A DNA stretch of 47,708 bases, from NCBI GenBank assembly GCA_043718025.1, contig JAYSWN010000194.1, forward strand, positions 1 to 47,708, read 5' to 3'. The DNA is from Pseudomonadota bacterium (GTDB lineage: Bacteria; Bdellovibrionota; FAC87; UBA2466). The notes beneath the pieces are model-generated. The model saw only the letters and a list, made by a program, of their open reading frames with translations. It ran no database searches and had not been told where the DNA came from. How positions within the stretch are numbered: the first letter of the stretch is position 1; every line of letters starts with the position of its first letter. The translations under genes were made by a program, and so were the position numbers. This document shows positions 10,584-41,107 of this stretch, piece after piece.

Positions 10584-11408
10584 TCAAAAATCAAAGTTGA
10601 GCTGGTCTTGCCTTTCGCCCACCGCTCTTTCCGTAGCGCCGTGCAACGTCATTATGTCGGTAGCCGCCTCGCGGCTGGTGACCTGAATGGAAAGTTTTTT
10701 TCCTAAAACTTTTCGGTGCAGCGCAAGCGCTTTGCGGGGCGAATTATTTTTGTCGGAAAGGTGCGCCAAGCTCAACCATTGCAGTCTATCGGTGGCGCTG
10801 TTTTCCACCAGCTCCGCCGCCTCACGGTTTGAAATGTGGCCGCGAGATCCGCTAATCCGTTCTTTGAGTCTGGCCGGGTAAGGGCCGCGGGCCAGCATGT
10901 CAGGATCGTAATTGCTCTCGAGAAATAGGCCGTCTACGCTTTTGACCACGCTCTTTAAGTCGTCAAACACATGGCCTACGTCGGTACAAATCGCCAACCG
11001 CTGAGTGCCATCATCCACCACAAAGACAACGCCATCCGCTGCGTCGTGCGGAGTGCGAATGGTTTCTACGGTAAGGTGCTGCACTTTCACCGATTGCCCC
11101 GAGCGAAAAGTTTGCAGATCAATGTTTTTAGTAGAGTGGATTGCCCGGCGCGACGCGTAGAGCGTGGGCTCAGTAATAAACAGCGGCACCTTAAATTTTC
11201 GAGCGTAAACACCGGCGCAGCGAACGTGATCGTAGTGGTCATGCGAAATAAAAAGGGCGTCGGCGCCATCGGCACTGCGGCCGTAGGTGGCCAGCCGTTC
11301 GGTCACCCTCAAGGCGCTAAGGCCGGCGTCAAATAGCAGGCGAACCCCTTGGCTTTCTACGTAAATGCAGTTGCCGCTGCTGCCCGATTGAAGTGAGATC
11401 AAAATCAT
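10584..11408 (-). CDS. MBL-fold metallo-hydrolase (YycJ/WalJ/PhnP-like)
   Basis: SGSSGN, HDHYDH, LESNYD, GHISN and AHLS. Confidence 0.9.
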   Translation of the reverse strand: MILISLQSGSSGNCIYVESQGVRLLFDAGLSALRVTERLATYGRSADGADALFISHDHYDHVRCAGVYARKFKVPLFITEPTLYASRRAIHSTKNIDLQTFRSGQSVKVQHLTVETIRTPHDAADGVVFVVDDGTQRLAICTDVGHVFDDLKSVVKSVDGLFLESNYDPDMLARGPYPARLKERISGSRGHISNREAAELVENSATDRLQWLSLAHLSDKNNSPRKALALHRKVLGKKLSIQVTSREAATDIMTLHGATERAVGERQDQLNFDF

Positions 11409-15419: not shown

Positions 15420-16691
15420 ATGCCTAAAAGTGGCTACCTAACTATCGTTATCCTCGCGGGGCTGCTCTCCACGACGTGGTTAACCAATGGCATTTTGGCC
15501 CGTCAGCCGGACTTTATTTACCTTCCGCTCGCACTGCGTTTTTTATTCGGGGCCGCCACTCTATTTTTTCTGCCGCTAATCTTTTTAAAACGTTTGCCAC
15601 AAAGCTCTCTTCGCCTTCTGCACGCCGCCCTTTCGGTTTCAAGTCTCACGTATTTTTTGGCGCCTTTACTCCTGCAAATGTCGCTCGCCACGTTGCCCTC
15701 TGGTTTTGTGGGGTTGGCATTTTGCACGATTCCGATTTGGCTCACCATTGTGGTGAAGGGGTTTAGCAGCGAAAAATTTGCCGACTATTTTTTGGTGATA
15801 TTGGGGCTCGTCGTTGCCATGGTGGGCTGTTGGACCATTGCCGCGGACCGGGGAAACCCGCTAATGGCGTTGTTGTTTTTGACCTTGGCCTGCACTTTCC
15901 AGGTTTTTGGTATTTGGCTAAGCCGCCGTCTGTTTTGGCTACACTCGGCCCTTGATCTCAATTTTTGGGCAATGGTTTTAGCCGGCCTAGCGCACTTACT
16001 TTTGTCGTTAATTCAGGGGGAAGTGGTATCGGCCCGCTTTTATCTGCTACGTCCCGAAGTGGCGGTGCTTATTCTGTGGACCGGTTTCATTGGTACCGGC
16101 GTGTCCGCCTACCTATATCGGGTTGAGTCGATGACCCGCAACACGTTGGTGCTGCTCACCTTGCTGGTGCCAGCATTAAGCTTAATTCTTGGTTCTCTCG
16201 CGCTCGAAGAAACCCCGCTCAATATATTTACCGGTTCGGGCCTATTGATGGTTTTGTTTGTGTTAGGCAAAGAGTCGTTGCGGGGGATTCCCGCTTACTG
16301 GATGACGTTGCTGCTCAACAATGATCGGCGCCACGGCGATCGTCTCGTATGCTTACTCGACGGTTACTTGAAGCGACCAGGGGATACTCAACCGGCCCGG
16401 GTGCAAGTGATTAACCTCTCGATTGGCGGTATTGGCTTTCGCATGGACCGCGAACTGCCGGCGGGGGAGCGCATTATTCTTACTCTACCCATGGGACAAA
16501 ATTGGACTTCATTTACGCTAGAAGGCCGTATTGCCCACATTGAAAAAAGGGGGGTGAAAGATTTCCCCTTCTCGGGCGGAATTGAGTTTCAGAACCTAGC
16601 GGGATTCCGCCTGCAGTGCGTGGTGGAATTTCTGGCGCGCGTCTCCCGGGCCGAGGATGAGAGCGTTGGCATGTTTCAAAATCAAGAGTAG
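15420..16691 (+). CDS. EamA/DMT transporter fused to a PilZ domain
   Basis: About 10 TM with an LRF motif; C-terminal RHGDR (RxxxR) and NLSIGG. Confidence 0.85.
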   Translation: MPKSGYLTIVILAGLLSTTWLTNGILARQPDFIYLPLALRFLFGAATLFFLPLIFLKRLPQSSLRLLHAALSVSSLTYFLAPLLLQMSLATLPSGFVGLAFCTIPIWLTIVVKGFSSEKFADYFLVILGLVVAMVGCWTIAADRGNPLMALLFLTLACTFQVFGIWLSRRLFWLHSALDLNFWAMVLAGLAHLLLSLIQGEVVSARFYLLRPEVAVLILWTGFIGTGVSAYLYRVESMTRNTLVLLTLLVPALSLILGSLALEETPLNIFTGSGLLMVLFVLGKESLRGIPAYWMTLLLNNDRRHGDRLVCLLDGYLKRPGDTQPARVQVINLSIGGIGFRMDRELPAGERIILTLPMGQNWTSFTLEGRIAHIEKRGVKDFPFSGGIEFQNLAGFRLQCVVEFLARVSRAEDESVGMFQNQE

Positions 16692-17288: not shown

Positions 17289-17843
17289 ATGCGATGCGCG
17301 ACACTCTTGATTATTCTTTTTGAATTGGCAAGCCCGAGGGGCCAAAATGCCCACGCGGCGGCGGCTGATTTCGTACGCCTCAACCTCATTGATTTCTCAA
17401 TCAAAATGCAGTTACCGCCAGACGCTGCGAAAGAATGCGTTCTCTTGAAGAGCACGGCCGAGGCCCTCTCTCGAGCCCAACAGGCAGCCAAATTGGTGGG
17501 GCATTCCCTCAAAGTACTCAGCTGCTATCGCCCCTTTTCCTCGACCCCCAAAATCGATGAAAATCTGCGGCGCGACTGGGCCCGCGGCAATACGGTAGAG
17601 GTGATTCTCACTGAGTCTGGCGGAGGGCCGGTGGCGCTTCCCGAGCCCCATGATCACGCCATTATGCTTTCGGCCAAGCAGTATAAAAAAGTGGAAGCCA
17701 AAAAGAATGTAGCTAAGCTTAATGCGCTGATGAATGCCGAGGGATTTGCGCCCGATCCCAAGGTGTGGTGGCGGTTTAGTTGGCTAAAAGCGGCCCAATC
17801 AGCGATCGAAGATTTTGCACCCGACTCTTTGCCCAAACGTTGA
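17289..17843 (+). CDS. VanX/DdpX (M15D) D-Ala-D-Ala dipeptidase homologue with lost zinc ligands
   Basis: LKVLSCYRP, WARGNTVEV and MNAEGF...VWWRF align with the family scaffold. Confidence 0.7.
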   Translation: MRCATLLIILFELASPRGQNAHAAAADFVRLNLIDFSIKMQLPPDAAKECVLLKSTAEALSRAQQAAKLVGHSLKVLSCYRPFSSTPKIDENLRRDWARGNTVEVILTESGGGPVALPEPHDHAIMLSAKQYKKVEAKKNVAKLNALMNAEGFAPDPKVWWRFSWLKAAQSAIEDFAPDSLPKR

Positions 17844-17906
17844 TTCCTAACTCAAATTCAATAAACTTCTCAATCGCTTCGGTTTGGGCGACAATCACCT
17901 AACATC

Positions 17907-19199
17907 GTGAATTGCTCAGCGCGCCATTTTAATTCTGCCGCCATCCTCTTTATAGTTATCGTGGTTTTTTTTCCGTGCCTAATGATGGCCGAAGAGGCAA
18001 AGACCAGCGAAGCCGTACCCCGAACCAATCGCAAAAAGAGCGGGGGCATGGGCAATGAAATAATCAGGGTGGGCGAGCAGGTGGCAAACCGAATCGACCG
18101 CATTGTAAAAAAGAAGACCTTCGAGTTGTGGGGTGACCCGTGGCAGATGCAGGGGCTGCCGCTTATCTTTCCGAGCAGCACCAGCGGTTTTAACCTAGGC
18201 CTAAAACTGGCGTTGCAAAACGTGATTCGTCAGGACCCGCATCAGTTGGAGCTTGAGGCGCAGATTCTCACCAGCGATCGCGGAAGGTATAAACACTTTT
18301 TTAGGTTCGACGCGCCGCACGCCTTTAAAGATCGCCTGCGGCTCACGTTTCGCTTTGGCTACGATCGCGACATTGCCTTGCCGTATTTCGGTCTGGGCAA
18401 CGAGACCTCGATCGACTGGAATGCCTATAATAACGACAATCCCCTCTACCAAAACGTTCGAGTGGGTCCGAGTGTGGATCTGCAGGCGCTTTACCGCTTC
18501 GCCGACTTTTGGCGCGTTGGTCCGGTGGTTCATCTACGCTGGACCGACGTCACGGCGCCAATCACGAGTTTGCTAACTACTGAACAGCCGGTTGGTACCA
18601 ACGGCGGGCGAACGCATGGCGTTGGCTTGGCATTGGTTCGCGATCAGTTGGATTGGGAGCCTTATCCCTCGCGCGGGAGTTACCATGAACTCATGTTTCT
18701 TACCCATGGGCCATTTACGGGCAGTAATTTCAATTTTAATCGGGGCACCTACACCTACAAGCGCTTCTTCTTAATCCATCGCCGACTAATTTTCGCTCAC
18801 CGCACGCTGTTCGAATTTCTAGATGGCGAGGTTCCTTTTTTCGAAATGAGTTCAGTGGGCGGCATTAGCCCGTCGCTGGCCTTCGGCGGCGAGCGGTTTC
18901 TGCGTGGATTTGAAGGGGCCCAATTTTTAGACAAAATTCGTGTCGCCATGGGCTTTGAGCTGCGTTGGGACCCTTTGTTTTTTGCCTTCGCCAAGCAGGA
19001 TATAACGATGGGTTTTGTGCCGTGGGTGGACTTGGCCCGGGTGTGGCCCAGTGTTTTTCCCCTGCGTTTGGGTGGCTGGCACGTGGCCGGGGGCTGGGGC
19101 GTTCGGCTGATCTGGAACAGCCGTCTGGTTATCCGCGGTGATCTTTCGTTTTCTTCCAACGGCATGGACTTCTTAGTGACCTTGGGCAATGCATTTTAA
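17907..19199 (+). CDS. Omp85/BamA-TamA family outer membrane barrel without an obvious POTRA domain
   Basis: YFGLGN, YPSRG, FLRGF, GWGVR and a C-terminal Phe. Confidence 0.8.
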   Translation: MNCSARHFNSAAILFIVIVVFFPCLMMAEEAKTSEAVPRTNRKKSGGMGNEIIRVGEQVANRIDRIVKKKTFELWGDPWQMQGLPLIFPSSTSGFNLGLKLALQNVIRQDPHQLELEAQILTSDRGRYKHFFRFDAPHAFKDRLRLTFRFGYDRDIALPYFGLGNETSIDWNAYNNDNPLYQNVRVGPSVDLQALYRFADFWRVGPVVHLRWTDVTAPITSLLTTEQPVGTNGGRTHGVGLALVRDQLDWEPYPSRGSYHELMFLTHGPFTGSNFNFNRGTYTYKRFFLIHRRLIFAHRTLFEFLDGEVPFFEMSSVGGISPSLAFGGERFLRGFEGAQFLDKIRVAMGFELRWDPLFFAFAKQDITMGFVPWVDLARVWPSVFPLRLGGWHVAGGWGVRLIWNSRLVIRGDLSFSSNGMDFLVTLGNAF

Positions 19200-19221
19200 C
19201 TCAATCAATGCAATGTCGTGC

Positions 19222-19264
19222 CTACTAAATAATTAGTAGACACCTACTAATTATTTAGTAGAAT
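19222..19264 (+). promoter_or_regulatory. twin palindromic operators over the sigma70-like promoter of blaI
   Basis: CTACTAA-N4-TTAGTAG at 19222-19239 and 19244-19261; -35 TAGACA 19237-19242, -10 TAGAAT 19259-19264. Confidence 0.85.
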
Positions 19265-19283
19265 GAAGTGATTGGGGGCATTT

Positions 19284-19673
19284 ATGACGAAGAAAAGCAC
19301 TCTGGCTAAACCGCTGACGCCGGTTGAGCTAGAGATCATGACGGTGGTTTGGACGCTGGGGGCTACGACCGTAAAAGAAGTTCAAAACGCGCTGCCAAAA
19401 GATCGCGGTCTGGCCTACACCACGGTGGCCACGATGATGAAGATTCTCGAAGGCAAGAAGATCGTAAAAAGTAAAAAGACCGACAAGGCCCACGTTTTTA
19501 CACCGCTGTTAACTCGCGAAGACTATGGCCAGGCTAGCCTTAAGGCTTTGGCCTGCGGTGTCTTTAAACAAAACCCCACCTGGCTGGTAAAACAGTTGCT
19601 CGAAAAAACGGACCTTAGCGAAGCCGAGCTAAAGGAGATTCGCCAATTGGTGAACGAAAGGCTTAGCGAATGA
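19284..19673 (+). CDS. BlaI/MecI/CopY family transcriptional repressor
   Basis: LTPVELEIMTVVW, LAYTTVATMMKILEGK and LSEAELKEIRQL. Confidence 0.92.
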   Translation: MTKKSTLAKPLTPVELEIMTVVWTLGATTVKEVQNALPKDRGLAYTTVATMMKILEGKKIVKSKKTDKAHVFTPLLTREDYGQASLKALACGVFKQNPTWLVKQLLEKTDLSEAELKEIRQLVNERLSE

Positions 19674-21259
19674 CGGCGCTCACTTTTCTCTCAAAATTTC
19701 TGCAGGCCAACCTGTTGATTGCCCTGGGCGCCACGGTGGCCTTGAGTTTTTCAGCGGTCAACGGCAAACGGCGAGGCCTTTCGTTTCGTAGCGAGCTTGG
19801 GCTTCATTACGGTTTGATCGCTTGGCTTCTGGCCACCTTTTTTATTTCCGCCTGGCTTCCGCGCAGTCAACCCTGGCTACCGAAGGCTCAAGTTTGGGCC
19901 GCGGCTACGTCTACAGACTGGACAGGGGAAAAAGTACCTACCGCCAATCAGCTCGTGGTTTCGGTGGACGAGCACGCTTCATGGCGAGCACCGAATGAAG
20001 CTCCACGCCTAATTTTTGGTTTGATCGCGGCGGTATTAATTTGGGGCCTGCTGATGCTCTTACGCGATAGCTGGCGAATGTTTGTTTTGCGACAAAACAG
20101 TGTGTCCATACGTCATATAGGGCGATTACGAATTCTGGCGGTGGGTGGCGGGGGCAGTCCGTTTTCATTTTCTGATCTTTTTGGCTCCTGGATTGTGCTG
20201 CCCGAAACCATTTTGAGTGACCACGCCTTAAGGAGGGTTTCACTACTTCACGAATTTCAGCACCTGCGTCATCACGACACCGTGGCGGTTTACGGTCTGG
20301 CATTTTTGCGTTGGGTGTTTTTTCTCAATCCGTTCTTTGCCATATGGCACCGACGGATTTTGGAGCTGCAAGAGTTTGCTTGTGACGAAACCCTGGTTGA
20401 CCAACGAGGCGTTTCGGCAAAGGCAATGGGTGGCTGCCTGTTAAGGGTGGCCGAATTGAGTGTGCCTGGAATCCATAGTCCGGTCTGCGCAACCGGAATG
20501 TGCTTTTCAGGCCGCTCTTCTTTAAAAAGGAGAATCATCAAAATGTCGAAAATTGATAAAAGGCAGTTTAACCGGCTTGGGCTGTGGTTTGGCTCGGCGC
20601 TGGCGTTAGTCCTGGGGGGAGCCACGGCGTGGGCCTCGCAGGAATTGGTGCAGGATCGCCGAATCACTCTCGAAGAGGCGCAAGGATTAAAGCGCTTCTC
20701 CGAAAGTGATTTTCCCTTGGCGATTAATGAGCTGGTAGTGAAAGAGCTTAATGTTTACGTGGGCACGCCCGACGGACGAAAGTTTGTGCGCGAGAGCCTT
20801 ATTCGCATGCGCACATTCAAGAAACCGGTGCTCGATAAAATGGAAACCTATTCGGCGCCGATGGATTTATTGGCGGTGCCGTTGGTTGAATCGGGTTTTC
20901 AAAACCTAACTCAAGAAAACAACCCGGTGAAAGGGGCCGGGCTGTGGCAGTTTATTCCCACCACGGCGCGCAACTACGGGTTAAAGGTAAACCCTCAGGA
21001 AGATCAGCGGCTGGATGTTGAGCTGGAAACCGACGCGGCGATGCGCTACCTGCTGTCGAATCGCTTACGTTTCAAAAGCTGGGAATTGGCGCTCTTGGCC
21101 TATAACTCGGGCGAAGGGGCCGTGCAAAAAGCCATTGATAAATTCAAGACCCGCGATGCGTGGGAGCTGGCCCGAAAGGGAGCGGAAGTGTATCCGCGGT
21201 ACCTGGCCAAAGTGGTAGCGGTGGCGTTGATTCTCAGAAACCAAAATCTGGTGGATTGA
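19670..21259 (+). CDS. BlaR1-type M56 metallopeptidase fused to an SLT/MltD-like lytic transglycosylase
   Basis: HEFQH, QEFACD and LKRRI; C-terminal VESGF, AGLWQFIPTTA and AYNSGEG. ATGA overlap with blaI. Confidence 0.9.
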   Translation: MTALTFLSKFLQANLLIALGATVALSFSAVNGKRRGLSFRSELGLHYGLIAWLLATFFISAWLPRSQPWLPKAQVWAAATSTDWTGEKVPTANQLVVSVDEHASWRAPNEAPRLIFGLIAAVLIWGLLMLLRDSWRMFVLRQNSVSIRHIGRLRILAVGGGGSPFSFSDLFGSWIVLPETILSDHALRRVSLLHEFQHLRHHDTVAVYGLAFLRWVFFLNPFFAIWHRRILELQEFACDETLVDQRGVSAKAMGGCLLRVAELSVPGIHSPVCATGMCFSGRSSLKRRIIKMSKIDKRQFNRLGLWFGSALALVLGGATAWASQELVQDRRITLEEAQGLKRFSESDFPLAINELVVKELNVYVGTPDGRKFVRESLIRMRTFKKPVLDKMETYSAPMDLLAVPLVESGFQNLTQENNPVKGAGLWQFIPTTARNYGLKVNPQEDQRLDVELETDAAMRYLLSNRLRFKSWELALLAYNSGEGAVQKAIDKFKTRDAWELARKGAEVYPRYLAKVVAVALILRNQNLVD

Positions 21260-21285
21260 GAACGCCGCGGTTATTGCGCAGCCCG

Positions 21286-21344
21286 AGGCCGAAGCAACCC
21301 TCTCTCGCCTTTTGGTAGTCGAGCGGCAAAAGTTGCTTCGGCCT
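21286..21344. terminator. inverted repeat between convergent genes, possible terminator
   Basis: AGGCCGAAGCAAC (21286-21298) and GTTGCTTCGGCCT (21332-21344). Confidence 0.5.
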
Positions 21345-22416
21345 ATTCAGCGCGAACGATTATGCTGTTTAAATTGAAGGTTCCGCATTGAGTACCATTG
21401 CCAAAACCGCTGGTTCTAAAGCTGACTAATAGGTTGCCGTCCGCTTGCAGAAAGTCAGAGAGGCTCCCTCCTCCTGAGCTACTGACCGAGTATCCTTGGC
21501 CGCCGGACAACGAGTTTGGTATCCCTACAATCCAGCTAAATCCTGTCCGTTTAAAGGCCCTAATTTGAAACGCGGGGCCCAAATTTGAAAGGTATGTACA
21601 GAGACCTTCGCCGTCTTCCGGGGTAATGCCAGACTTTCCGTAGGCTTCCACTTTAAGGGAGTTGTAAGCGTTTAGATTGGCCGGCGGGGTAAAAATGCCG
21701 TCCAATCGCATGTGATTTATTCCAAGCCCGGTTGAATTCAGCTCATGCGCTCCGATCAGGCTCGAAATTTCCGACATCGTAGATCCGGTCACATTCACCG
21801 GAGGAATTCCGGCTTCCCCAAAAGTAAAGGAGAGGGAAGAGCTACCTGAAACTCCCGAGAAGCCTAAGTACGCACTTTTCAGCGTAAAATCTCCAGGGGC
21901 GGGGGCAGGGCACGCCTGCAACCTGTCACCGCTGTTGGAATCGAATTCAGAGGTGAGTGACACTTTTCCAGAGGCGGTATCGGCCGTACCCCGGGCAACA
22001 AAGTACTCGGCCGGAATGGTTGCCTGATTAAACAAAGCCGCCAAAGTGGTTTGGCCGGAGGGCGGAGTGTCAAACCCGACGATGGTAAACCGAAAAGTGC
22101 CGGTGGGTAGGTTGATTGAAAAACCGCTTTCGGTTAGTTGCTTATAGCTGACGGGATAAGTCACCTGCCCATCGAGATAAAGGCATTGTACATTTCGCCC
22201 TTTTACGGTGGCCGAATCGACCGTAGGCGCCACATTCCCCGTGGCAATCACCGCAAAACTAAAATTACTCAATTCGGGCGGTCTAGAAGGGAGGCCATTT
22301 AGGCTATCAGAGTTAGCAAGGTGGATTCGAAGCGCAGGCCGGAAGGTGTTTAAGCTGCAGCGAGCTAAAAAAAATCCGGTGCTACTGACTAAGAACAGGA
22401 CAACCCAGGCCTTCAT
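21343..22416 (-). CDS. lipoprotein sharing its N-terminal domain with the RCC1 protein; Ser/Gly-rich beta C-terminal domain
   Basis: Signal MKAWVV...LAR-CSLNTFRP. Confidence 0.75.
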   Translation of the reverse strand: MKAWVVLFLVSSTGFFLARCSLNTFRPALRIHLANSDSLNGLPSRPPELSNFSFAVIATGNVAPTVDSATVKGRNVQCLYLDGQVTYPVSYKQLTESGFSINLPTGTFRFTIVGFDTPPSGQTTLAALFNQATIPAEYFVARGTADTASGKVSLTSEFDSNSGDRLQACPAPAPGDFTLKSAYLGFSGVSGSSSLSFTFGEAGIPPVNVTGSTMSEISSLIGAHELNSTGLGINHMRLDGIFTPPANLNAYNSLKVEAYGKSGITPEDGEGLCTYLSNLGPAFQIRAFKRTGFSWIVGIPNSLSGGQGYSVSSSGGGSLSDFLQADGNLLVSFRTSGFGNGTQCGTFNLNSIIVRAE

Positions 22417-35072: not shown

Positions 35073-38000
35073 TCAGTGAAAGTCGTGCGATTGGTTTCGT
35101 AGGTTGGAGGCCGGGATTAGGCGCTCCGCTCCATCGACAATGACATGGGTGACGTTGGTGCCCTGCGTTTTTTCTACGCGCCCCTTCACGCGCAGCAGCG
35201 CCTCGTTCGACATCAGCTCTCGGTACTTTTCAAAAACCTTTCTCCAGATCACCAGGTTAATGAAGCCCAGTTCATCTTCTAGGGTGATAAAGAGGACGCC
35301 CTTGGCGGTGGGGGGCATCTGCCGGCAGATGACCAGCCCCGCGGTTTCGACGCGAGAGAGTCCCTTCTTTTCGAGCAACTGCTTTGAGTCCAAGACCTTC
35401 TCGGCCTTTAAAAAGTCACGAAAACAGCTCATCGGATGAGCGGTGAGAGAAACGCCCTTAGCGCTGTAATCTAAGGCCACACTTTCCCATTTGGTTTCGA
35501 GCGGCAGCTCTAGCTTTTCTTCATGCGGAGAAAACGGCTCGCTATCTTGAATGAAGGCCCCTTGAATTTGCCACATGGCTTCCCGTCGGTTCAAACCGTA
35601 GCTGCAAAAGGCATCGGCGCCGGCCAGTAAAAAAAGGTCGCGCTTTTTCAGTGGGTCAGGGGCGATTTCGGTTTTCAAATTTTCAAAGAGCGAGAAAAGC
35701 GTGGTGGCGTTAAGGCGGGCCTTTTCTACCGCCCGGCCCACCTTTTCAGTTAAGCCCCGCACTTCGCGAAAACCCATGCGCACTTCGTTGCGGCGTTCAA
35801 CAAAATGATCCCAGGTAGAAAGTTTGGCGTCGAGGGGTAGCATCACCACGCCGTGGTTCACGGCGTCGTACACCAGCGTGCTGGTCTGATAAAAGCCCAT
35901 AGGCTGGGCATTTAAAATGCCGACCAGGTAGCAGTCGGGGTAATAGTAGCGAAGGTAGGCGCTGGCGTAAGCCAGCAGCGCAAAAGAGGCGGCGTGGCTT
36001 TCGGGAAAACCATATTCGGCAAAGCCTTCGATCTGTTGAAACACGCGATCGGCAAACTCTTGGGAAATGCCGCGGGCCATGAGACCCGTCTTAAATTTTT
36101 CGCCCAGCGGCGATAGGCGGTTGCCGCCGTGATTTCGCCACGTGCCCATGGCGCGCCTGAGTTCATCGGCCTCTCCGGCGCTAAAGCCCGCCACCCTCAT
36201 GGCCATTTTCATGATCTGCTCTTGAAACAGCGGCACTCCGTAAGTCTTTTTTAAAATCGCCTCTAATTCGGGGTGGGGGTAGGTGACTTTTTCTAAACCC
36301 GCTCGTCTCCTTAGGTAAGGGTGAACCATTTCGCCTTGAATGGGGCCGGGGCGCACCAGCGCCACCTCCACCACCAGATCGTAAAATACTTTGGGCTGAA
36401 GGCGAGGCAACATGTTCATCTGCGCGCGTGATTCAATTTGAAACACGCCGATGGTGTCGCCGGTGGCAATCTGCGCGTACACTTTAGGGTCTTCGGCCGG
36501 AATGGAGGCTAGGGTCAGCGTGATGCCGCGGCTCTTTTCAACTTGCGAAAAAGTTTTTCGAAGGCAGGTCAAAATGCCTAATCCTAAAATGTCTACCTTC
36601 ACCAGGTTTAAGGTGTCGAGATCGTCTTTGTTCCATTGAATGATGGTGCGGTCTTTCATCGCGGCTTTCTCCACCGGAACCAAGTGGGTGAGCTTGTCTT
36701 GACACAGAATAAAGCCACCGACGTGAGTGCCTAAATGGCGGGGGAAACCCGAAATCTCATCGGCAAGCTCTAGGTATTTGGGTAAGAGTTCAGCCGGCAT
36801 GCGATCGTGAAGTTGCTGTCTTTCGGCCGGCTTTAACGGGTCGAGCTTTAGATCACGGCGGTGAGTGAGGGTCTGAATGGTGTCAATCGCGGCCGACGGT
36901 ACGCCAAACACCTTGCCCACTTCACGCAGGGCCGAACGGCGGCGAAAGCAAATGGTGTTGGCGGTAATGGCGGCGCGATCGCGGCCGTAGCGTCGGTAAA
37001 TGTACTGAATCACCTCTTCGCGTCGCTCGTGCTCAAAATCAATGTCAATGTCGGGCGGCTCTTTGCGTTCACGTGAAACAAAACGTTCGAAAAGTAAATT
37101 CATGCGCACTGGATCGATGGCGGTGATGCCTAAAAAATAACAGACCACCGAGTTGGCGGCTGAGCCGCGCCCCTGAAATAAGATCTTCTCCCTCTGCGCA
37201 AACTGAATGATGTCCCAGATGGTGAGAAAGTAATGGCCGTAATCAAGCTCGCTTATCAACCCTAACTCGTGTTCTACCTGTTTTTTTACGTCGGCGGGAA
37301 CGCCGTTAGGGTAACGAAATAGCGCCCCCTGCCACGTTAGCTTTTGCAAAAAACTACTTTGCGTTTCTCCCGGCGGCAGCCACTCGTCTGGGTAGCGGTA
37401 ATGCAGTTCATTTAGGGAGAATAGGCAGCGCTCCGAAATTTCTTTGGTGCGCGAAATCCATTCTGGAAAATCATGAAACAGCTCGGCTACGGTGTGGGGA
37501 GATTTTAAATGGCGCTCGTCGTTAGGCAGCAGTTTAAAGCCGGCTTGGTCTAGTGTGCAGTTGTGGTGAATACAGGTGAGCACGTCTTGTAAGGCTTTGC
37601 GGTGAGGCGTGTGGTAGAGCGGCTCTAAGCTTGCGATCAATGGGATGTTTAAGCGCGTGCTGGCGGCTTGGGCCTTTTTAATTCGCGCGCCGTCGCTGCC
37701 TTCTGCGTAGAGAGTGGCGCTGAGGTAAATACGGCCGTCGTAGGCTTCGCGCAAATCCGGCGGGCAATCGTAAGGGTAGGGGAGAATTAAGCTGAGCCCT
37801 TCATTATTTTCGGCGGCCACGTTCCAGGCGAGGCGCGGGTCATCGCGCTCCTCGTGTGCGAGTGTGAGCGACTCTCCCAAATTGGCGTACCCTTTTTTGT
37901 TTTCGGCTAAGAAGCAGAGTCGTTGCCCGGTGGGGGATAGCGTTTCGGCGCCAACGATAAGTCGCGCGCCTTTTAATTTTTCGGCGGCCTGATGCGCTTG

Positions 38001-38168
38001 CGGTAAACCGTAAACTCCATGGCGGTCGACCAGCGCAATGGCACGGTAGCCCAACGCCGTTGCGCTGTGGATCATTTCGCTGGGATGAGAGGCCCCGTGC
38101 AAAAAAGAAAAGCACGTCTTGGCGAGCAACTCGACAAAATCACTTCGTAGCCGAGGGTGCGCCGTCAT
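35073..38168 (-). CDS. dnaE2: error-prone DNA polymerase DnaE2 (ImuC)
   Basis: FSFLHGASHP, GRGSAANS, PPDIDIDFEH, GFPESHA and C-terminal SHDFH. Confidence 0.97.
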   Translation of the reverse strand: MTAHPRLRSDFVELLAKTCFSFLHGASHPSEMIHSATALGYRAIALVDRHGVYGLPQAHQAAEKLKGARLIVGAETLSPTGQRLCFLAENKKGYANLGESLTLAHEERDDPRLAWNVAAENNEGLSLILPYPYDCPPDLREAYDGRIYLSATLYAEGSDGARIKKAQAASTRLNIPLIASLEPLYHTPHRKALQDVLTCIHHNCTLDQAGFKLLPNDERHLKSPHTVAELFHDFPEWISRTKEISERCLFSLNELHYRYPDEWLPPGETQSSFLQKLTWQGALFRYPNGVPADVKKQVEHELGLISELDYGHYFLTIWDIIQFAQREKILFQGRGSAANSVVCYFLGITAIDPVRMNLLFERFVSRERKEPPDIDIDFEHERREEVIQYIYRRYGRDRAAITANTICFRRRSALREVGKVFGVPSAAIDTIQTLTHRRDLKLDPLKPAERQQLHDRMPAELLPKYLELADEISGFPRHLGTHVGGFILCQDKLTHLVPVEKAAMKDRTIIQWNKDDLDTLNLVKVDILGLGILTCLRKTFSQVEKSRGITLTLASIPAEDPKVYAQIATGDTIGVFQIESRAQMNMLPRLQPKVFYDLVVEVALVRPGPIQGEMVHPYLRRRAGLEKVTYPHPELEAILKKTYGVPLFQEQIMKMAMRVAGFSAGEADELRRAMGTWRNHGGNRLSPLGEKFKTGLMARGISQEFADRVFQQIEGFAEYGFPESHAASFALLAYASAYLRYYYPDCYLVGILNAQPMGFYQTSTLVYDAVNHGVVMLPLDAKLSTWDHFVERRNEVRMGFREVRGLTEKVGRAVEKARLNATTLFSLFENLKTEIAPDPLKKRDLFLLAGADAFCSYGLNRREAMWQIQGAFIQDSEPFSPHEEKLELPLETKWESVALDYSAKGVSLTAHPMSCFRDFLKAEKVLDSKQLLEKKGLSRVETAGLVICRQMPPTAKGVLFITLEDELGFINLVIWRKVFEKYRELMSNEALLRVKGRVEKTQGTNVTHVIVDGAERLIPASNLRNQSHDFH

Positions 38169-38189
38169 TTTGTTAGTTCCCTGATTTCC

Positions 38190-38303
38190 AAAGGTGCCCA
38201 TCTACTTTTCAGCTGAAAAGGTCGCGGGTGCATCTCACAGTTTTGCACCTGGCACCTTTTCAGCTGAAAAGTAGATGGGCACCTTTTTGGGCACCTTTTT
38301 GGG
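38190..38303. repeat. REP/MITE-like element with 33-bp perfect inverted repeats
   Basis: 38190-38222 is the exact reverse complement of 38254-38286; each arm holds the palindrome CTTTTCAGCTGAAAAG; tandem GGGCACCTTTTT x2 at the right end. Confidence 0.85.
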
Positions 38304-39542
38304 TTAGCAGAATTCGCCATGTAGGTACCACTGGTCTTGGGTTTGAAAGAGCCATAATTTTTCGTCGTTGGGGCCGTGGGCCAAATAGTATTGTCGTGGT
38401 GGCTCGCCGCTCCACCAGCTGGTGGTGAGCTTCTCGGTGGGGGTCAGCCGCCACACCGCCGCGTTAAAGACAAAAGGTCTGGGTGAAAAAAGGTAAAGCG
38501 GCCGGGCCGGATAGAAGTCGCGCTTCTTTAGTGGCAGCACCGGCTGCGAAACCATCTCCCAGGTGCATTCCGGTAGGTGGCTCTCTTTTAGTTTGATGAA
38601 GCCCGCTTTGTCTTGCCCCAGCCTGTGGCGTAGCCGTTCTAGATAAGTTTGCAGGTCTTGTTGCCTGGTTTCGTCGTCGTCAAAAAGGTGTAGCTGGCGT
38701 GAACCCTGGGCAATGGCGTCGGTCACCTCCACGCCCACTTTTCTTAGTGGCGAATCCCACTTCAGCCCATTGACCCACTCCGAAAAAAGTTTAAGCAAAG
38801 CGGCGGAGTTGCGCGATGGTTCGGTAAGAAAAAGATCTTTTCGCTTAGTGCCACTCTCCAAACGAAAGGTGAAGGTGATTTTTTTGGCCAGTGCTGCGCG
38901 CCCTAATAGCCGCGCTTCCATTTTATTGAGCGTGCTGTTCATGAGGTAGATGAGACTCTCTTGGCTGGATGCCTCTTCGGCATCTAACGATTCCACCAGC
39001 CGGTGGTCGGGTTCAAATATTCGTAAGCAGAGCGGCCGTTGGCCCAGCACCATGTCGTGGAGAGGCAGTATGCCTTTGCCAAAACGGCGTACTACCGCAT
39101 CATTAGGTAGCCGGGCAAAATCACCCACCGTGTTTAATCCCACCCGTTTCATGAATAGAATGAGCTTCTCCCGCAGCGGTTTTTCTTCTTCCAGCTTTTG
39201 CGGGTCGCCGCAGGTGAGCAGGGCCGTAAGCCCTTTGGCGAAAAGGGCGGCTTGGCTCTGCCCTTCGGGTAGAATCAAAAGGCGACGGGCTCCGGGAGAG
39301 AGTGCGGCACCCCACTCTGGCTTATCGACCACCACCCCTTCAAAGGGAATTTCATTTTCGTAGAGCGCGCGCAGGGCTTCGAAACGGGCCATCCAGCCTT
39401 CAAAACCGCCAAAATATTTTTCGGTGGCGGTGATCTCCAGATACAGATGTACGCCCACACAAAACACCTTGGGGGTGAGCGCCAAGCAGGCTTCGGCAAA
39501 GTCTGGCCGAGGCTCGGCCAACATCAAATACAAAAATCGCAT
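38304..39542 (-). CDS. imuB: ImuB, inactive Y-family polymerase accessory subunit
   Basis: LYLEITAT, GLNTVGDF...RRFG, SHLPE, WW...RQYY and WYLHGEF; lies upstream of dnaE2. Confidence 0.85.
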   Translation of the reverse strand: MRFLYLMLAEPRPDFAEACLALTPKVFCVGVHLYLEITATEKYFGGFEGWMARFEALRALYENEIPFEGVVVDKPEWGAALSPGARRLLILPEGQSQAALFAKGLTALLTCGDPQKLEEEKPLREKLILFMKRVGLNTVGDFARLPNDAVVRRFGKGILPLHDMVLGQRPLCLRIFEPDHRLVESLDAEEASSQESLIYLMNSTLNKMEARLLGRAALAKKITFTFRLESGTKRKDLFLTEPSRNSAALLKLFSEWVNGLKWDSPLRKVGVEVTDAIAQGSRQLHLFDDDETRQQDLQTYLERLRHRLGQDKAGFIKLKESHLPECTWEMVSQPVLPLKKRDFYPARPLYLFSPRPFVFNAAVWRLTPTEKLTTSWWSGEPPRQYYLAHGPNDEKLWLFQTQDQWYLHGEFC

Positions 39543-39568
39543 AGAGCAACCATCCGCTTAGGCCAGTT

Positions 39569-40258
39569 TTAACTTCCAAAGGAAAAGCGAAATAACCAGT
39601 GCGGCAAGGGCCGTGAGCACAAGATGAAGGTCCGGCAGTTTACTTTTTCGGACGCCAGTTGAAGCTTGCGTAAGAAGCTGGGTTCGCACCCTTCAGAAAC
39701 TTTGATAAAGGCCCACCGGAACAGGCCGGTTTGAATCGACTCTAGACCCGTACGCCACACCTCGCGAGGCGTGGGCGGGTAGGCCACAATTAAATTTTGT
39801 AGCGGAAAGCATTCGAGCTGATGGAACGCCTCTGCATTTAAGGTTCCCGTATCCGAAACCCACACCGCGTACTCTTTGGCCTCTTTCCAAGCAGGCCTGT
39901 GGGGGGGAAGAGGAGCAGAGTGCAAGAGTCTAACCATGGACTCTGCTCCTCGGGGGGAACCAGATTGCGCCAGGCCACCTTTTTCCATCCACTGCAACGA
40001 CCGGTGCAGAAAGGCTGACGTGGCAGCGTCGCCTTTGCCTTCAGCATCCTTGACTGAAGGGGAGGTGGCCTGGGGCTTAGCAAGAAAAGAAAGCCCCTTT
40101 AAATTTTTGAGACGCTGCGCTTGGCTAACCTTAGCTAGAGGAAGGGAAAGGGGGAGAGCGACCAACTCTCCCCCTCCGGTCCTTACTTCTTTGCCATCGG
40201 CTGTGTCTGCCGATTGAAGCTCCGGGTGAGAGCTTTTTGATTGGCAACTACGTCTCAT
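39569..40258 (-). CDS. imuA: ImuA-like degenerate RecA-fold protein
   Basis: RKLQLASEK and AVWVS, no Walker A; first gene of the cassette. Start chosen from the promoter position. Confidence 0.7.
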   Translation of the reverse strand: MRRSCQSKSSHPELQSADTADGKEVRTGGGELVALPLSLPLAKVSQAQRLKNLKGLSFLAKPQATSPSVKDAEGKGDAATSAFLHRSLQWMEKGGLAQSGSPRGAESMVRLLHSAPLPPHRPAWKEAKEYAVWVSDTGTLNAEAFHQLECFPLQNLIVAYPPTPREVWRTGLESIQTGLFRWAFIKVSEGCEPSFLRKLQLASEKVNCRTFILCSRPLPHWLFRFSFGS

Positions 40259-40265
40259 TTCCAAT

Positions 40266-40283
40266 ACCATACATGTGTATGGT
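40266..40283. promoter_or_regulatory. palindromic operator, candidate LexA box, over the imuA -10 element
   Basis: ACCATACA-TG-TGTATGGT; minus-strand TAGATC-N17-TATGGT-N7-ATG. Confidence 0.65.
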
Positions 40284-40453
40284 TCATCGATCTAGCCCCT
40301 ATGAGTCAAGTTTTCTTAAAAATAAGCGCCAAGCTCGGTTTCTCTTGCCTGACTTGCTTCTTCAAGAGAGCCCCGCTTTGGTACTCATCCCCAGGAGGTC
40401 CCTTTTTCGACGGCTACTGAAGGCGGGCGAGTTTATTTTTTTCTTCCGCTTTC

Positions 40454-40482
40454 TAGACAGCGAAGTGCGCCGTGATTAATCT
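40454..40482 (+). promoter_or_regulatory. sigma70-like promoter of lexA
   Basis: TAGACA (40454-40459), N17, TAATCT (40477-40482), then 7 nt before the ATG. Confidence 0.6.
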
Positions 40483-40489
40483 TTTTAAT

Positions 40490-41107
40490 ATGGAATCAAG
40501 GCAACCGCTCACCTCGGCCCAGGCGGAGGTTTATAAGTACATCAAACAGTGTTGCGCCGAGGGACAACCGCCGTCCTACCGCGAAATTCAAAATCACCTG
40601 GGTTATAAAGCCGTGGGCACCGTTCAAGACCACATCAAAGCGTTGGTAAAAAAAGGGTGGCTTGAAAAAAATGAATTAAAAAAAACGGGTAGAAAAGCGC
40701 GCGGCCTAATGCCAATAGGGCAGCGCCCCGCCAACGCCAAGTCGATTCCTATCTACGGAGAAATCGCCGCCGGCTCTTTGCGCGACAATCCACAGGTTGA
40801 GCTAGGGCAGCTGCCGGTGGCCGGAGATTGGGTGAAGGGCGAAAGCTTTGCCCTCAGGGTAACGGGAAATAGCATGATCGAGGTGGGCATCTTCGAGGGT
40901 GATTTTGTTATCGTGGCCCGCAGCGTAGCGATAAAGAGCGGCGATATTGTCGTGGCGTTGTACTGTGGCGAAACCACCGTCAAAACCTATGAAAGAAGAA
41001 AAGACGGTATCTATTTAGTTCCGCAAAACCCAACCATGAAGGCCTTTAAAATTGATGGCCCTTTTGAGCTTCAGGGAAAAGTGGTTGGCCTGCAGCGACG
41101 GTTCTAA
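40490..41107 (+). CDS. lexA: LexA repressor
   Basis: PPSYREI winged HTH, IAAG cleavage site, GNSM and TVK catalytic dyad. Confidence 0.95.
   Translation: MESRQPLTSAQAEVYKYIKQCCAEGQPPSYREIQNHLGYKAVGTVQDHIKALVKKGWLEKNELKKTGRKARGLMPIGQRPANAKSIPIYGEIAAGSLRDNPQVELGQLPVAGDWVKGESFALRVTGNSMIEVGIFEGDFVIVARSVAIKSGDIVVALYCGETTVKTYERRKDGIYLVPQNPTMKAFKIDGPFELQGKVVGLQRRF

Follow-up and report, generated by a model that had tools for sequence, protein, structure and literature searches.

A BlaI/M56 cassette that appears to be its own target, with a predicted internal start for an exported transglycosylase

What does a BlaI/BlaR1-type cassette switch on when no target gene is linked to it? About 94% of BlaR-like proteins are without a penicillin-binding domain, and what most of them sense and control is not known (bioRxiv 10.64898/2026.04.08.717257). 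The question is raised by a locus at positions 19222-21259 of a 47,708-nucleotide (nt) stretch of DNA, here called the window (contig JAYSWN010000194.1, assembly GCA_043718025.1), from a Bdellovibrionota genome of 4.14 Mb that is 92% complete. The locus holds a BlaI-family repressor gene followed by a gene whose product joins a BlaR1-type M56 zinc protease to an MltD-type lytic transglycosylase domain. We propose, with a probability of roughly 0.6, that this one open reading frame (ORF) would give rise both to a tethered sensor-protease and, from a nested start, to an exported transglycosylase of 238 amino acids (aa) as the effector, a reading drawn from patterns of sequence conservation.

The repressor gene (19284, an ATG, to 19673, + strand) encodes 129 aa with a PF03965 match (E 4e-30) that align to the MecI and BlaI structures, and its stop overlaps the start of the M56-transglycosylase ORF as ATGA at 19670-19673. 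This coupling of a BlaI repressor to an M56 protein had been described in an earlier note on this DNA and is borne out by the analysis; the overlap is retained in 58 of 73 relatives. Among 80 named loci (the best 80 of 187, with lineages taken from record titles), blaI lies immediately 5' of the fusion gene in 73, and of the other seven, six end at a contig edge and one (L035) is disrupted. Upstream of the repressor gene, two predicted BlaI operators (the palindrome CTACTA-N6-TAGTAG at 19222-19239 and its partner at 19244-19261) form a perfect 18-nt inverted repeat pair, whose first base, 19222, is also where the locus picked out in the earlier note begins. At least two ACTA-N6-TAGT sites, spaced by 22 or 23 bp, are found 5' of blaI in 66 of the 68 relatives with full upstream DNA. 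The window's own pattern CTAC-N10-GTAG is present in only 2 of 73 relatives; the shared core is ACTA-N6-TAGT. A sigma-70-type promoter, TAGACA-16-TAGAAT (19237-19264, + strand), overlaps both operators and is the sole promoter-like site in 19100-21450, but shuffled sequence yields 1.5 such sites, and its support is therefore its position; TTGACA-like hexamers occupy the equivalent place in relatives.

No target beyond the cassette was apparent. Its two genes are the sole BlaI and M56 matches in the source genome, and the two operators are the sole such sites there, the next best position weight matrix score being 14.4 against 30.3. In two sets of five genomes (one genome apparently common to both), 9 of 10 and 14 of 16 exact operator sites fall at blaI-M56 cassettes and the rest are single sites at or below the control level, and with a loose operator pattern in five further genomes the counts did not exceed the control, cassettes excepted. 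Extra operator pairs in the genomes G044 and G272 were both found at blaI genes. No third gene is conserved, as the largest other neighbor family occurs at 6 of the 80 loci when ORFs called within the cassette itself, antisense or in another frame, are discounted. No beta-lactamase is linked, as the earlier note had also stated: the neighbors are an Omp85-family gene, an M15 peptidase gene and an ORF of unknown kind, and the window has a single gene of the metallo-beta-lactamase fold (10584-11408), at a distance of 8 kb and with no operator. The locus has the adjacent BlaI/MecI/CopY-type repressor and the palindromic operators at the promoter that define a BlaIR pair in the broad sense, and it lacks the linked, operator-bearing beta-lactamase or PBP2a gene of canonical BlaR1/MecR1 systems. 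With operators at the cassette alone and no conserved third gene, the system appears to have no target other than itself, and we consider self-regulation by BlaI very probable.

With the cassette as its own sole visible target, the question becomes what its output is. Many short database proteins start at the equivalent of Met292 of the 529-aa fusion protein, which prompted a codon analysis of 83 genes (46 clusters when one gene was taken per 55% cluster); the short proteins themselves were set aside as support, since most of them are on short contigs and their starts are a matter of gene calling. In the window, the codons of Arg287-Arg288 spell a Shine-Dalgarno (SD) sequence, AGGAGA (20528-20533, + strand). 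Across the family, these codons are AGG or CGG followed by AGA or AGG, which makes GGAG in 77 of 83 genes, whereas the conserved control pair Arg330-Arg331 has it in 1 of 83; with one gene per cluster the count is 42 of 46, where 3.0 are expected. AGA and AGG together account for 12% of the Arg codons in the long ORFs of the source genome, and only 55 of 2478 Arg-Arg pairs there give GGAG. Codons 287 and 288 are the two most biased of 511 columns, and an Arg-to-Trp change in one relative (L072) still retains the GGAG. The in-frame ATG follows the motif at 9 nt in 67, at 6 nt in 9 and at 3 nt in 1 of the 77 genes, and an equivalent of Met292 is present in all of the 120 best homologues (of 612, chosen by similarity). 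The context is that of a start site: columns 291 and 292 have the best anti-SD energies of the gene (-8.7 and -8.5; median, -1.3), codons 290-299 form its deepest dip in GC content at third positions (-0.20), and the mRNA fold is at its weakest (about -4 versus about -9 kcal/mol). The internal site outscores the coupled start in 59 of 71 genes, with -8.4 versus -3.2 in the window. The association was replicated in metagenomes (best 80 of 168 loci, 76 usable, 54 of them <70% identical to the first set; 41 genes once near-copies were removed), where motif and ATG are found together in 20 genes, both are missing in 19 and one occurs without the other in 2, with GGAG at the control pair in 1 of 41. 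The SD, spacing, start codon and open mRNA context of internal-start proteoforms are all found here as conserved features, and the internal start is, on this sequence evidence, in all likelihood used.

The predicted nested in-frame gene (20543-21259, + strand) would encode, from Met292, 238 aa made up of a signal peptide and the transglycosylase, the mature enzyme being about 207 aa long. Its signal-peptide-like stretch (20543-20635, + strand) has a basic n-region, a hydrophobic helix that is the fourth transmembrane helix (TM4) of the long form, and A-W-A followed by S323, and residues 292-322 fit a Sec signal peptide by the simple rules that underlie all such calls here (n-region charge, hydrophobic stretch and AxA site). 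In the 83 genes, the stretch is 29-40 residues long, with a net charge of at least +1 in 81 and an AxA-type site in 76, and 238 of 262 proteins pass the same rules. A single-sequence fold of the short form gave a mean predicted local distance difference test (pLDDT) score of 37, too low to be informative. The earlier note had proposed a one-protein sensor-effector; the BlaI/BlaR1-type pairing on which that proposal was built holds, and the words "one protein" are probably wrong, given an internal start under strong selection from which a second product would be made and exported. Annotation pipelines give only the long product.

Three predicted mRNA hairpins lie within the coding sequence (20386-20416, 20431-20453 and 20458-20517, + strand) and end 10 nt before the internal SD. 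This region of the window has a fold z score of -3.9 against shuffles, and codons 243-274 are likewise under synonymous constraint. In 46 sequences, the second and third hairpins pair in 81% of 684 cells, compared to 72% for shuffled and at most 48% for slid controls, and they covary, with 79 double changes against 32, a comparison that is favored by the structure having been derived from folds of the same sequences. The region also folds better than synonymous recodings (mean z of -1.9, with 18 of 46 sequences below -2), while eight other regions gave z values of -1.0 to +0.8. The first hairpin has no fixed register, and an Rfam identity for the second was rejected, the single match being far below the gathering score. 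The hairpins may shield a processed 3' mRNA, insulate the start or slow upstream ribosomes.

The long product (19670-21259, + strand; 529 aa) has two Pfam matches above cut-off, PF05569 (Peptidase_M56) at residues 170-290 (E 2e-13) and PF01464 (SLT) at residues 395-499 (E 3e-21). Both domains are carried by 120 of the 120 best homologues; the fusion is therefore not due to chance, and the architecture is already in the databases, as the earlier note had suspected, under the NCBI name "M56 and MltD domain-containing protein." The conserved zinc protease motifs HEFQH (194-198), D203 and EFACD (235-239) are encoded at 20249-20386 (+ strand), and LKRRI lies at residues 285-289. In an alignment of 265 proteins, which was picked by similarity and is biased towards intact proteins, H194, E195, E235, D239 and R288 are present in 265 and H198 in 264, so that HExxH, ExxxD and the equivalents of BlaR1 Asp210 and Arg294 (D203 and R288) are found in 263-265 of the 265. 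The profile of the 120 homologues aligns to residues 4-325 of Staphylococcus aureus BlaR1, which is its whole membrane and protease part, and continues past it into the catalytic domain of Pseudomonas aeruginosa MltD. A structure model of the protein (pLDDT 88) matches BlaR1 8EXS with a Z score of 17.6 and a root-mean-square deviation (rmsd) of 3.3 Å. Hydropathy predicts four membrane helices (around 6-30, 41-64, 108-135 and 302-322) with basic inner loops, and a BlaR1-like topology with the C-terminal domain outside is predicted. In the autocleavage loop, F279 aligns with BlaR1 Phe284 and is Phe in 110 of 120 homologues, a hydrophobic P1' residue as judged from the alignment. Three cytoplasmic cysteines, C238, C256 and C273, are conserved in 259, 244 and 155 of the 265 proteins, a conservation to which the RNA hairpins may contribute, since they extend over codons 256 and 273.

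The MltD-type (family 1D) catalytic domain spans residues 343-529 (20696-21256, + strand), with the catalytic E407 at 20888-20890 inside a VES motif. This glutamate, the protease motifs and the additional hydrophobic helix at about 302-322 are all where the earlier note had placed them. E407 is present in 265, W426 in 264 and Y511 in 263 of the 265 proteins, and the model superimposes on MltD 8RHE with a Z score of 21.9 and an rmsd of 2.0 Å over 180 residues. By alignment, the counterparts of E407, P404, GLWQ and Y511 in the P. aeruginosa enzyme are E144, P141, motif II and Y249 (PMC11327851), and the ES motif, GLWQ, orienting Tyr and N-terminal helices of family 1D are all there. The LysM and lipoprotein anchor of MltD are not: the protein ends after the catalytic domain with no LysM match, and it scores 86.6 in the MltD test NF008050, where the cut-off is 508. 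PF01464 stands in the place of the penicillin sensor of BlaR1, PF00905, as had been claimed, and the NF000326 score is 29.6 against a cut-off of 400. The enzyme domain is predicted to lie in the periplasm, not the cytoplasm, because of the four hydropathy helices and the N-out, C-out topology of BlaR1. Nor was it ever a separate ORF in the relatives examined, with no internal stop in 38 of 38 full-length matches and a stop in 0 of 41 metagenome genes, both sets having been selected by full-length similarity. Stand-alone relatives of the domain occur at L111 and L110. We think it somewhat more probable than not that the enzyme domain acts as the sensor.

The same arrangement recurs with a different enzyme. 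Fifteen longer relatives with a close M56 part (L093-L105, L112 and L028:1610-3592) carry PF00905 domains that are closest to class B penicillin-binding proteins (PBPs; FtsI/SpoVD-like), with SxxK in 15 of 15. They have blaI on the 5' side in 14 of 15 cases, the remaining one ending at a contig edge, and twin ACTA-N6-TAGT operators like those of the SLT type, and no linked beta-lactamase was found among the neighbors scanned. All 15 genes have GGAG and ATG, with a long hairpin 5' of the motif (mean fold z of -1.6), and, from the sequence, their short product would be a penicillin-binding domain set free in the periplasm. The internal-start feature is also present in one more cassette, the tail of which is unannotated. 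A weak branch (68/82) of the M56 tree separates the SLT type from the PBP type, and we claim no order of events. One locus, L028, holds an SLT cassette and a PBP cassette back to back. Among distant M56 genes, nine (L113, L123, L124, L129, L131, L132, L137, L138 and L145) have an SD-like motif at the conserved Arg with a Met 3-5 codons on, and also a signal-peptide-like stretch; several of them are in high-GC genomes. Nested starts may recur across the M56 family; the hairpins were absent in the 26 distant M56 genes examined. We lean slightly towards a widespread BlaIR branch with a nested effector, in which the codons of a catalytic Arg-Arg pair in the protease double as a ribosome-binding site, a transmembrane helix doubles as a signal peptide, hairpins set the output, and a swappable wall enzyme serves as both sensor and response.

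In the mechanism that we propose, BlaI dimers on the twin operators would cover the -35 and -10 boxes. The 529-aa form would hold its protease in the cytoplasm and its enzyme in the periplasm, following BlaR1 homology and hydropathy, and its groove would engage abnormal glycan near the inner membrane, most plausibly uncrosslinked strands under wall stress. Uncrosslinked strands are our best guess because transglycosylases clear such strands from the periplasm (PMC8820737) and the sister cassette carries a beta-lactam target domain; as for wall stress being the trigger, we advance this tentatively, at somewhat less than even odds. The engaged long form would then, by analogy, have its protease cleave BlaI; this signalling step, and above all the nature of the signal, is the weakest of the scheme. 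Translation of the derepressed mRNA would begin both at the coupled start, which is weak, and at the stronger internal one, and TM4 of the long form would serve as the signal peptide of the 238-aa form, so that derepression would give mainly free periplasmic transglycosylase of about 207 aa. The free enzyme would remove the strands, and the signal would stop.

Several observations weigh against this account. In a tree of 77 genes, 22 are without the internal ATG, as one clade of 20 and two single genes, and these genes retain the fusion and mostly the operators. The short form is therefore not obligatory; by the same token, the clade shows that the long form functions by itself and that the protein does not dictate the codon bias. 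With only three independent losses a sign test cannot reach significance, and the Fisher p value of 2e-9 overstates the association. In the window the motif is predicted to be mostly paired (unpaired, 0.21; family mean, 0.46, and >0.5 in 15 of 46), and a second AGGAGG with no start codon lies at about 20231, so that the single sequence proves little and the case rests on conservation. RNAalifold with default settings returns a consensus of only a 4-pair stem, and the z score is weaker than -2 in 5 of 10 single folds. In 26 distant M56 genes, motif and ATG are only loosely linked, with an AGR codon at the conserved Arg in 7 of 11 with the ATG and 3 of 15 without (p 0.04). On the protein side, BlaR1 has an N-out, C-out topology and cleaves BlaI directly, and its Tyr261 is near-essential (PMC9834060); the equivalent residue is Met in the window (Met253, 20426-20428) and in four relatives only, with Tyr in 260 of 265. 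The repressor has an invariant Leu105 at the P1' position where BlaI has Phe. Coevolution between the extracellular loop and the enzyme groove was not clear at an effective depth of 196, with top pairs that are noise-like; W76-R331 and W76-P367 (z of about 4) are leads only. Finally, the regulon of Clostridioides difficile CenIR comprises 12 genes, and its inducer was not found (bioRxiv 10.64898/2026.04.08.717257); by analogy with CenIR, weak or indirect operator targets can escape motif scans.

The ATG-less genes also favor the best-placed of the other explanations, in which the tethered enzyme is the single product and acts as both sensor and effector, soluble enzyme arises only through shedding by signal peptidase, and GGAG and the hairpins pause ribosomes for the insertion of TM4. 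SD-like motifs can cause ribosome pausing, which fits such a role for the GGAG. Shedding would also have a precedent in BlaR1, which signal peptidase releases at Gly331 (PMC9834060), and the present family has kept its AxA site. However, a pause needs no ATG, yet an ATG lies 6 or 9 nt 3' of the motif in 76 of the 77 motif-bearing genes, and the motif has been lost in each of the three ATG-less lineages (L206, within the large clade, retains it). The A/T-rich, unstructured stretch, moreover, extends past the ATG as it does at start sites. We consider a single product unlikely.

The nested effector has also to be weighed against the idea that the enzyme is cargo, the M56 part sensing by other means (extracellular loop, membrane or cysteines) and the fusion just exporting the enzyme under BlaI control. 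A catalytic Glu kept in 265 of 265 proteins is expected of an enzyme rather than of a pure binding module, the BlaR of Mycobacterium tuberculosis is without a sensor domain (PMC9834060), the same M56 clade bears a class B PBP domain or another tail, and the lack of loop-to-groove coevolution points the same way. If the domain were cargo, however, stops before Met292 should be tolerated, and, as said, none was seen in the 38 and 41 genes of the two full-length-selected sets; in addition, proteins of the SLT type share a conserved extracellular loop (P71, W76, A78 and G93), which does not look like that of the PBP type. This explanation seems to us, if anything, slightly less likely than a single product.

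Of 301 genomes of the phylum, 38 carry the fusion, as do 12 of the 28 from the source genome's own family. By record title, 58 of the 80 named loci are from Bdellovibrionota, 14 are vague and 8 are from other lineages (Desulfobacterota, Gammaproteobacteria and Acidobacteriota), and no cultured isolate was identified among these loci or among 10 clusters that were examined. A cluster of 139 members in the ESM Atlas has the architecture. On viral contigs, none of 93 pattern matches was confirmed, on plasmids, none of 56 matches covers 80% of the protein, and no longer fusion was found among 1359 candidates, which is weak evidence. Disrupted cassette copies were seen at L035, L040, L060 and L109, with N-terminal loss, frameshifts, or a truncated M56 beside an ISL3 transposase; these may be assembly errors. 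That the cassette senses prey peptidoglycan and releases the enzyme to cut the prey wall, a possibility raised by the earlier note, would suit the 58 Bdellovibrionota titles and the transglycosylase that Bdellovibrio bacteriovorus secretes to cut the prey wall (PMC10127604), but it is left unsupported and very improbable by the patchy distribution and the eight loci titled as other lineages, by an inner-membrane sensor that faces the cell's own wall, by 12 other SLT matches in the genome and by a sister cassette that bears a wall-building, beta-lactam-binding domain.

Compared to S. aureus BlaR1/BlaI and MecR1/MecI (PDB 8EXP-8EXT, 1SD4 and 1OKR; PMC9834060), the cassette shares the four membrane helices with a re-entrant segment, HExxH, ExxxD and equivalents of Asp210, Arg294 and the P1' Phe (D203, R288 and F279), as well as an extracytoplasmic C-terminal domain, a peptidase site after TM4, an adjacent repressor and twin operators. 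It differs in having a transglycosylase instead of a class D-like sensor, no blaZ or mecA target, and the repressor gene first. BlaR1, for its part, keeps the Tyr261 that is Met in the window and has no Met after its KRR, so that it is without an equivalent internal start. The non-canonical CenIR likewise has blaI 5' of an M56 gene that has another extracellular domain, and no beta-lactamase; unlike the window, where the sole visible target is the cassette, CenIR controls separate genes, and its account includes no internal start. An InterPro survey lists 254 M56 architectures, including M56-M23 and M56-Amidase_3 (bioRxiv 10.64898/2026.04.08.717257; PMC9662197), some extracellular domains of non-canonical BlaIR systems are wall hydrolases (bioRxiv 10.64898/2026.04.08.717257), and M56-TonB is in print (bioRxiv 10.1101/2023.07.07.548152). 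SLT is not among the common M56 architectures named in the first of these, and neither "SLT" nor "transglycosylase" occurs in its main text. P. aeruginosa MltD (8RHE; PMC11327851) shares the ES motif with a Pro three residues before it, GLWQ, the orienting Tyr and an N-terminal helical extension, while the window protein is without LysM and lipobox and is anchored by the M56 protease or would be exported by the internal signal peptide. The sister cassettes have a class B transpeptidase, neither a transglycosylase nor the class D-like sensor of BlaR1. Internal-start proteoforms such as SpaO/SsaQ, CheA, ClpB, IF2 and SafA (PMC13515050) likewise come as a long and a short product of one ORF that differ in role or location; unlike these, the long form here would control the short form as its output, the motif lies in codons of catalytically required Arg, and a transmembrane helix doubles as the signal peptide. 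The cassette is a member of the broad BlaIR group that probably works like BlaR1, yet it is neither a canonical BlaR1 nor a full MltD.

Since the architecture is already named and present in 38 of 301 genomes, it is by itself a modest variant. Among open PMC papers and bioRxiv, we found none that deals with an M56-SLT fusion or describes a BlaR gene with an internal start, and the searched portions of the supplements of PMC10127604 and PMC12546842 contain no M56/BlaR terms. Diverse M56 tails and internal-start proteoforms are already known; the self-only operators and the internal start are the new points.

A 13-nt inverted repeat (21286-21344, no strand assigned), a possible terminator, lies between the cassette and a convergent gene. 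The M15 peptidase-like and Omp85-family genes (17289-19199) are on the same strand, 5' of the operators, and are also found in the same-genus genome G044 but not kept in the wider locus set. Further away, a lexA gene points away from a DNA polymerase III alpha-like gene and two ORFs that lack annotation (35073-41107), which we take to resemble a lexA-imuA-imuB-dnaE2 mutagenesis cassette, and at 15420-16691 an EamA-like transporter is fused to a PilZ domain.

In conclusion, the nested effector is the surprising part and, as predictions from sequence go, it is well supported. Three overlapping codes, for catalytic residues, a ribosome-binding site and RNA hairpins, would fall within about 170 nt of one ORF, and the SD motif can be removed by a silent change of two codons that leaves the protein unaltered, which makes the idea directly testable. 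The long form would be a receptor that reads the state of peptidoglycan with an active wall enzyme. This clade offers an answer to the question of what an orphan cassette switches on, namely its own C-terminal domain from an internal start, and if this is true, many of the target-less orphan BlaIR cassettes would be explained.

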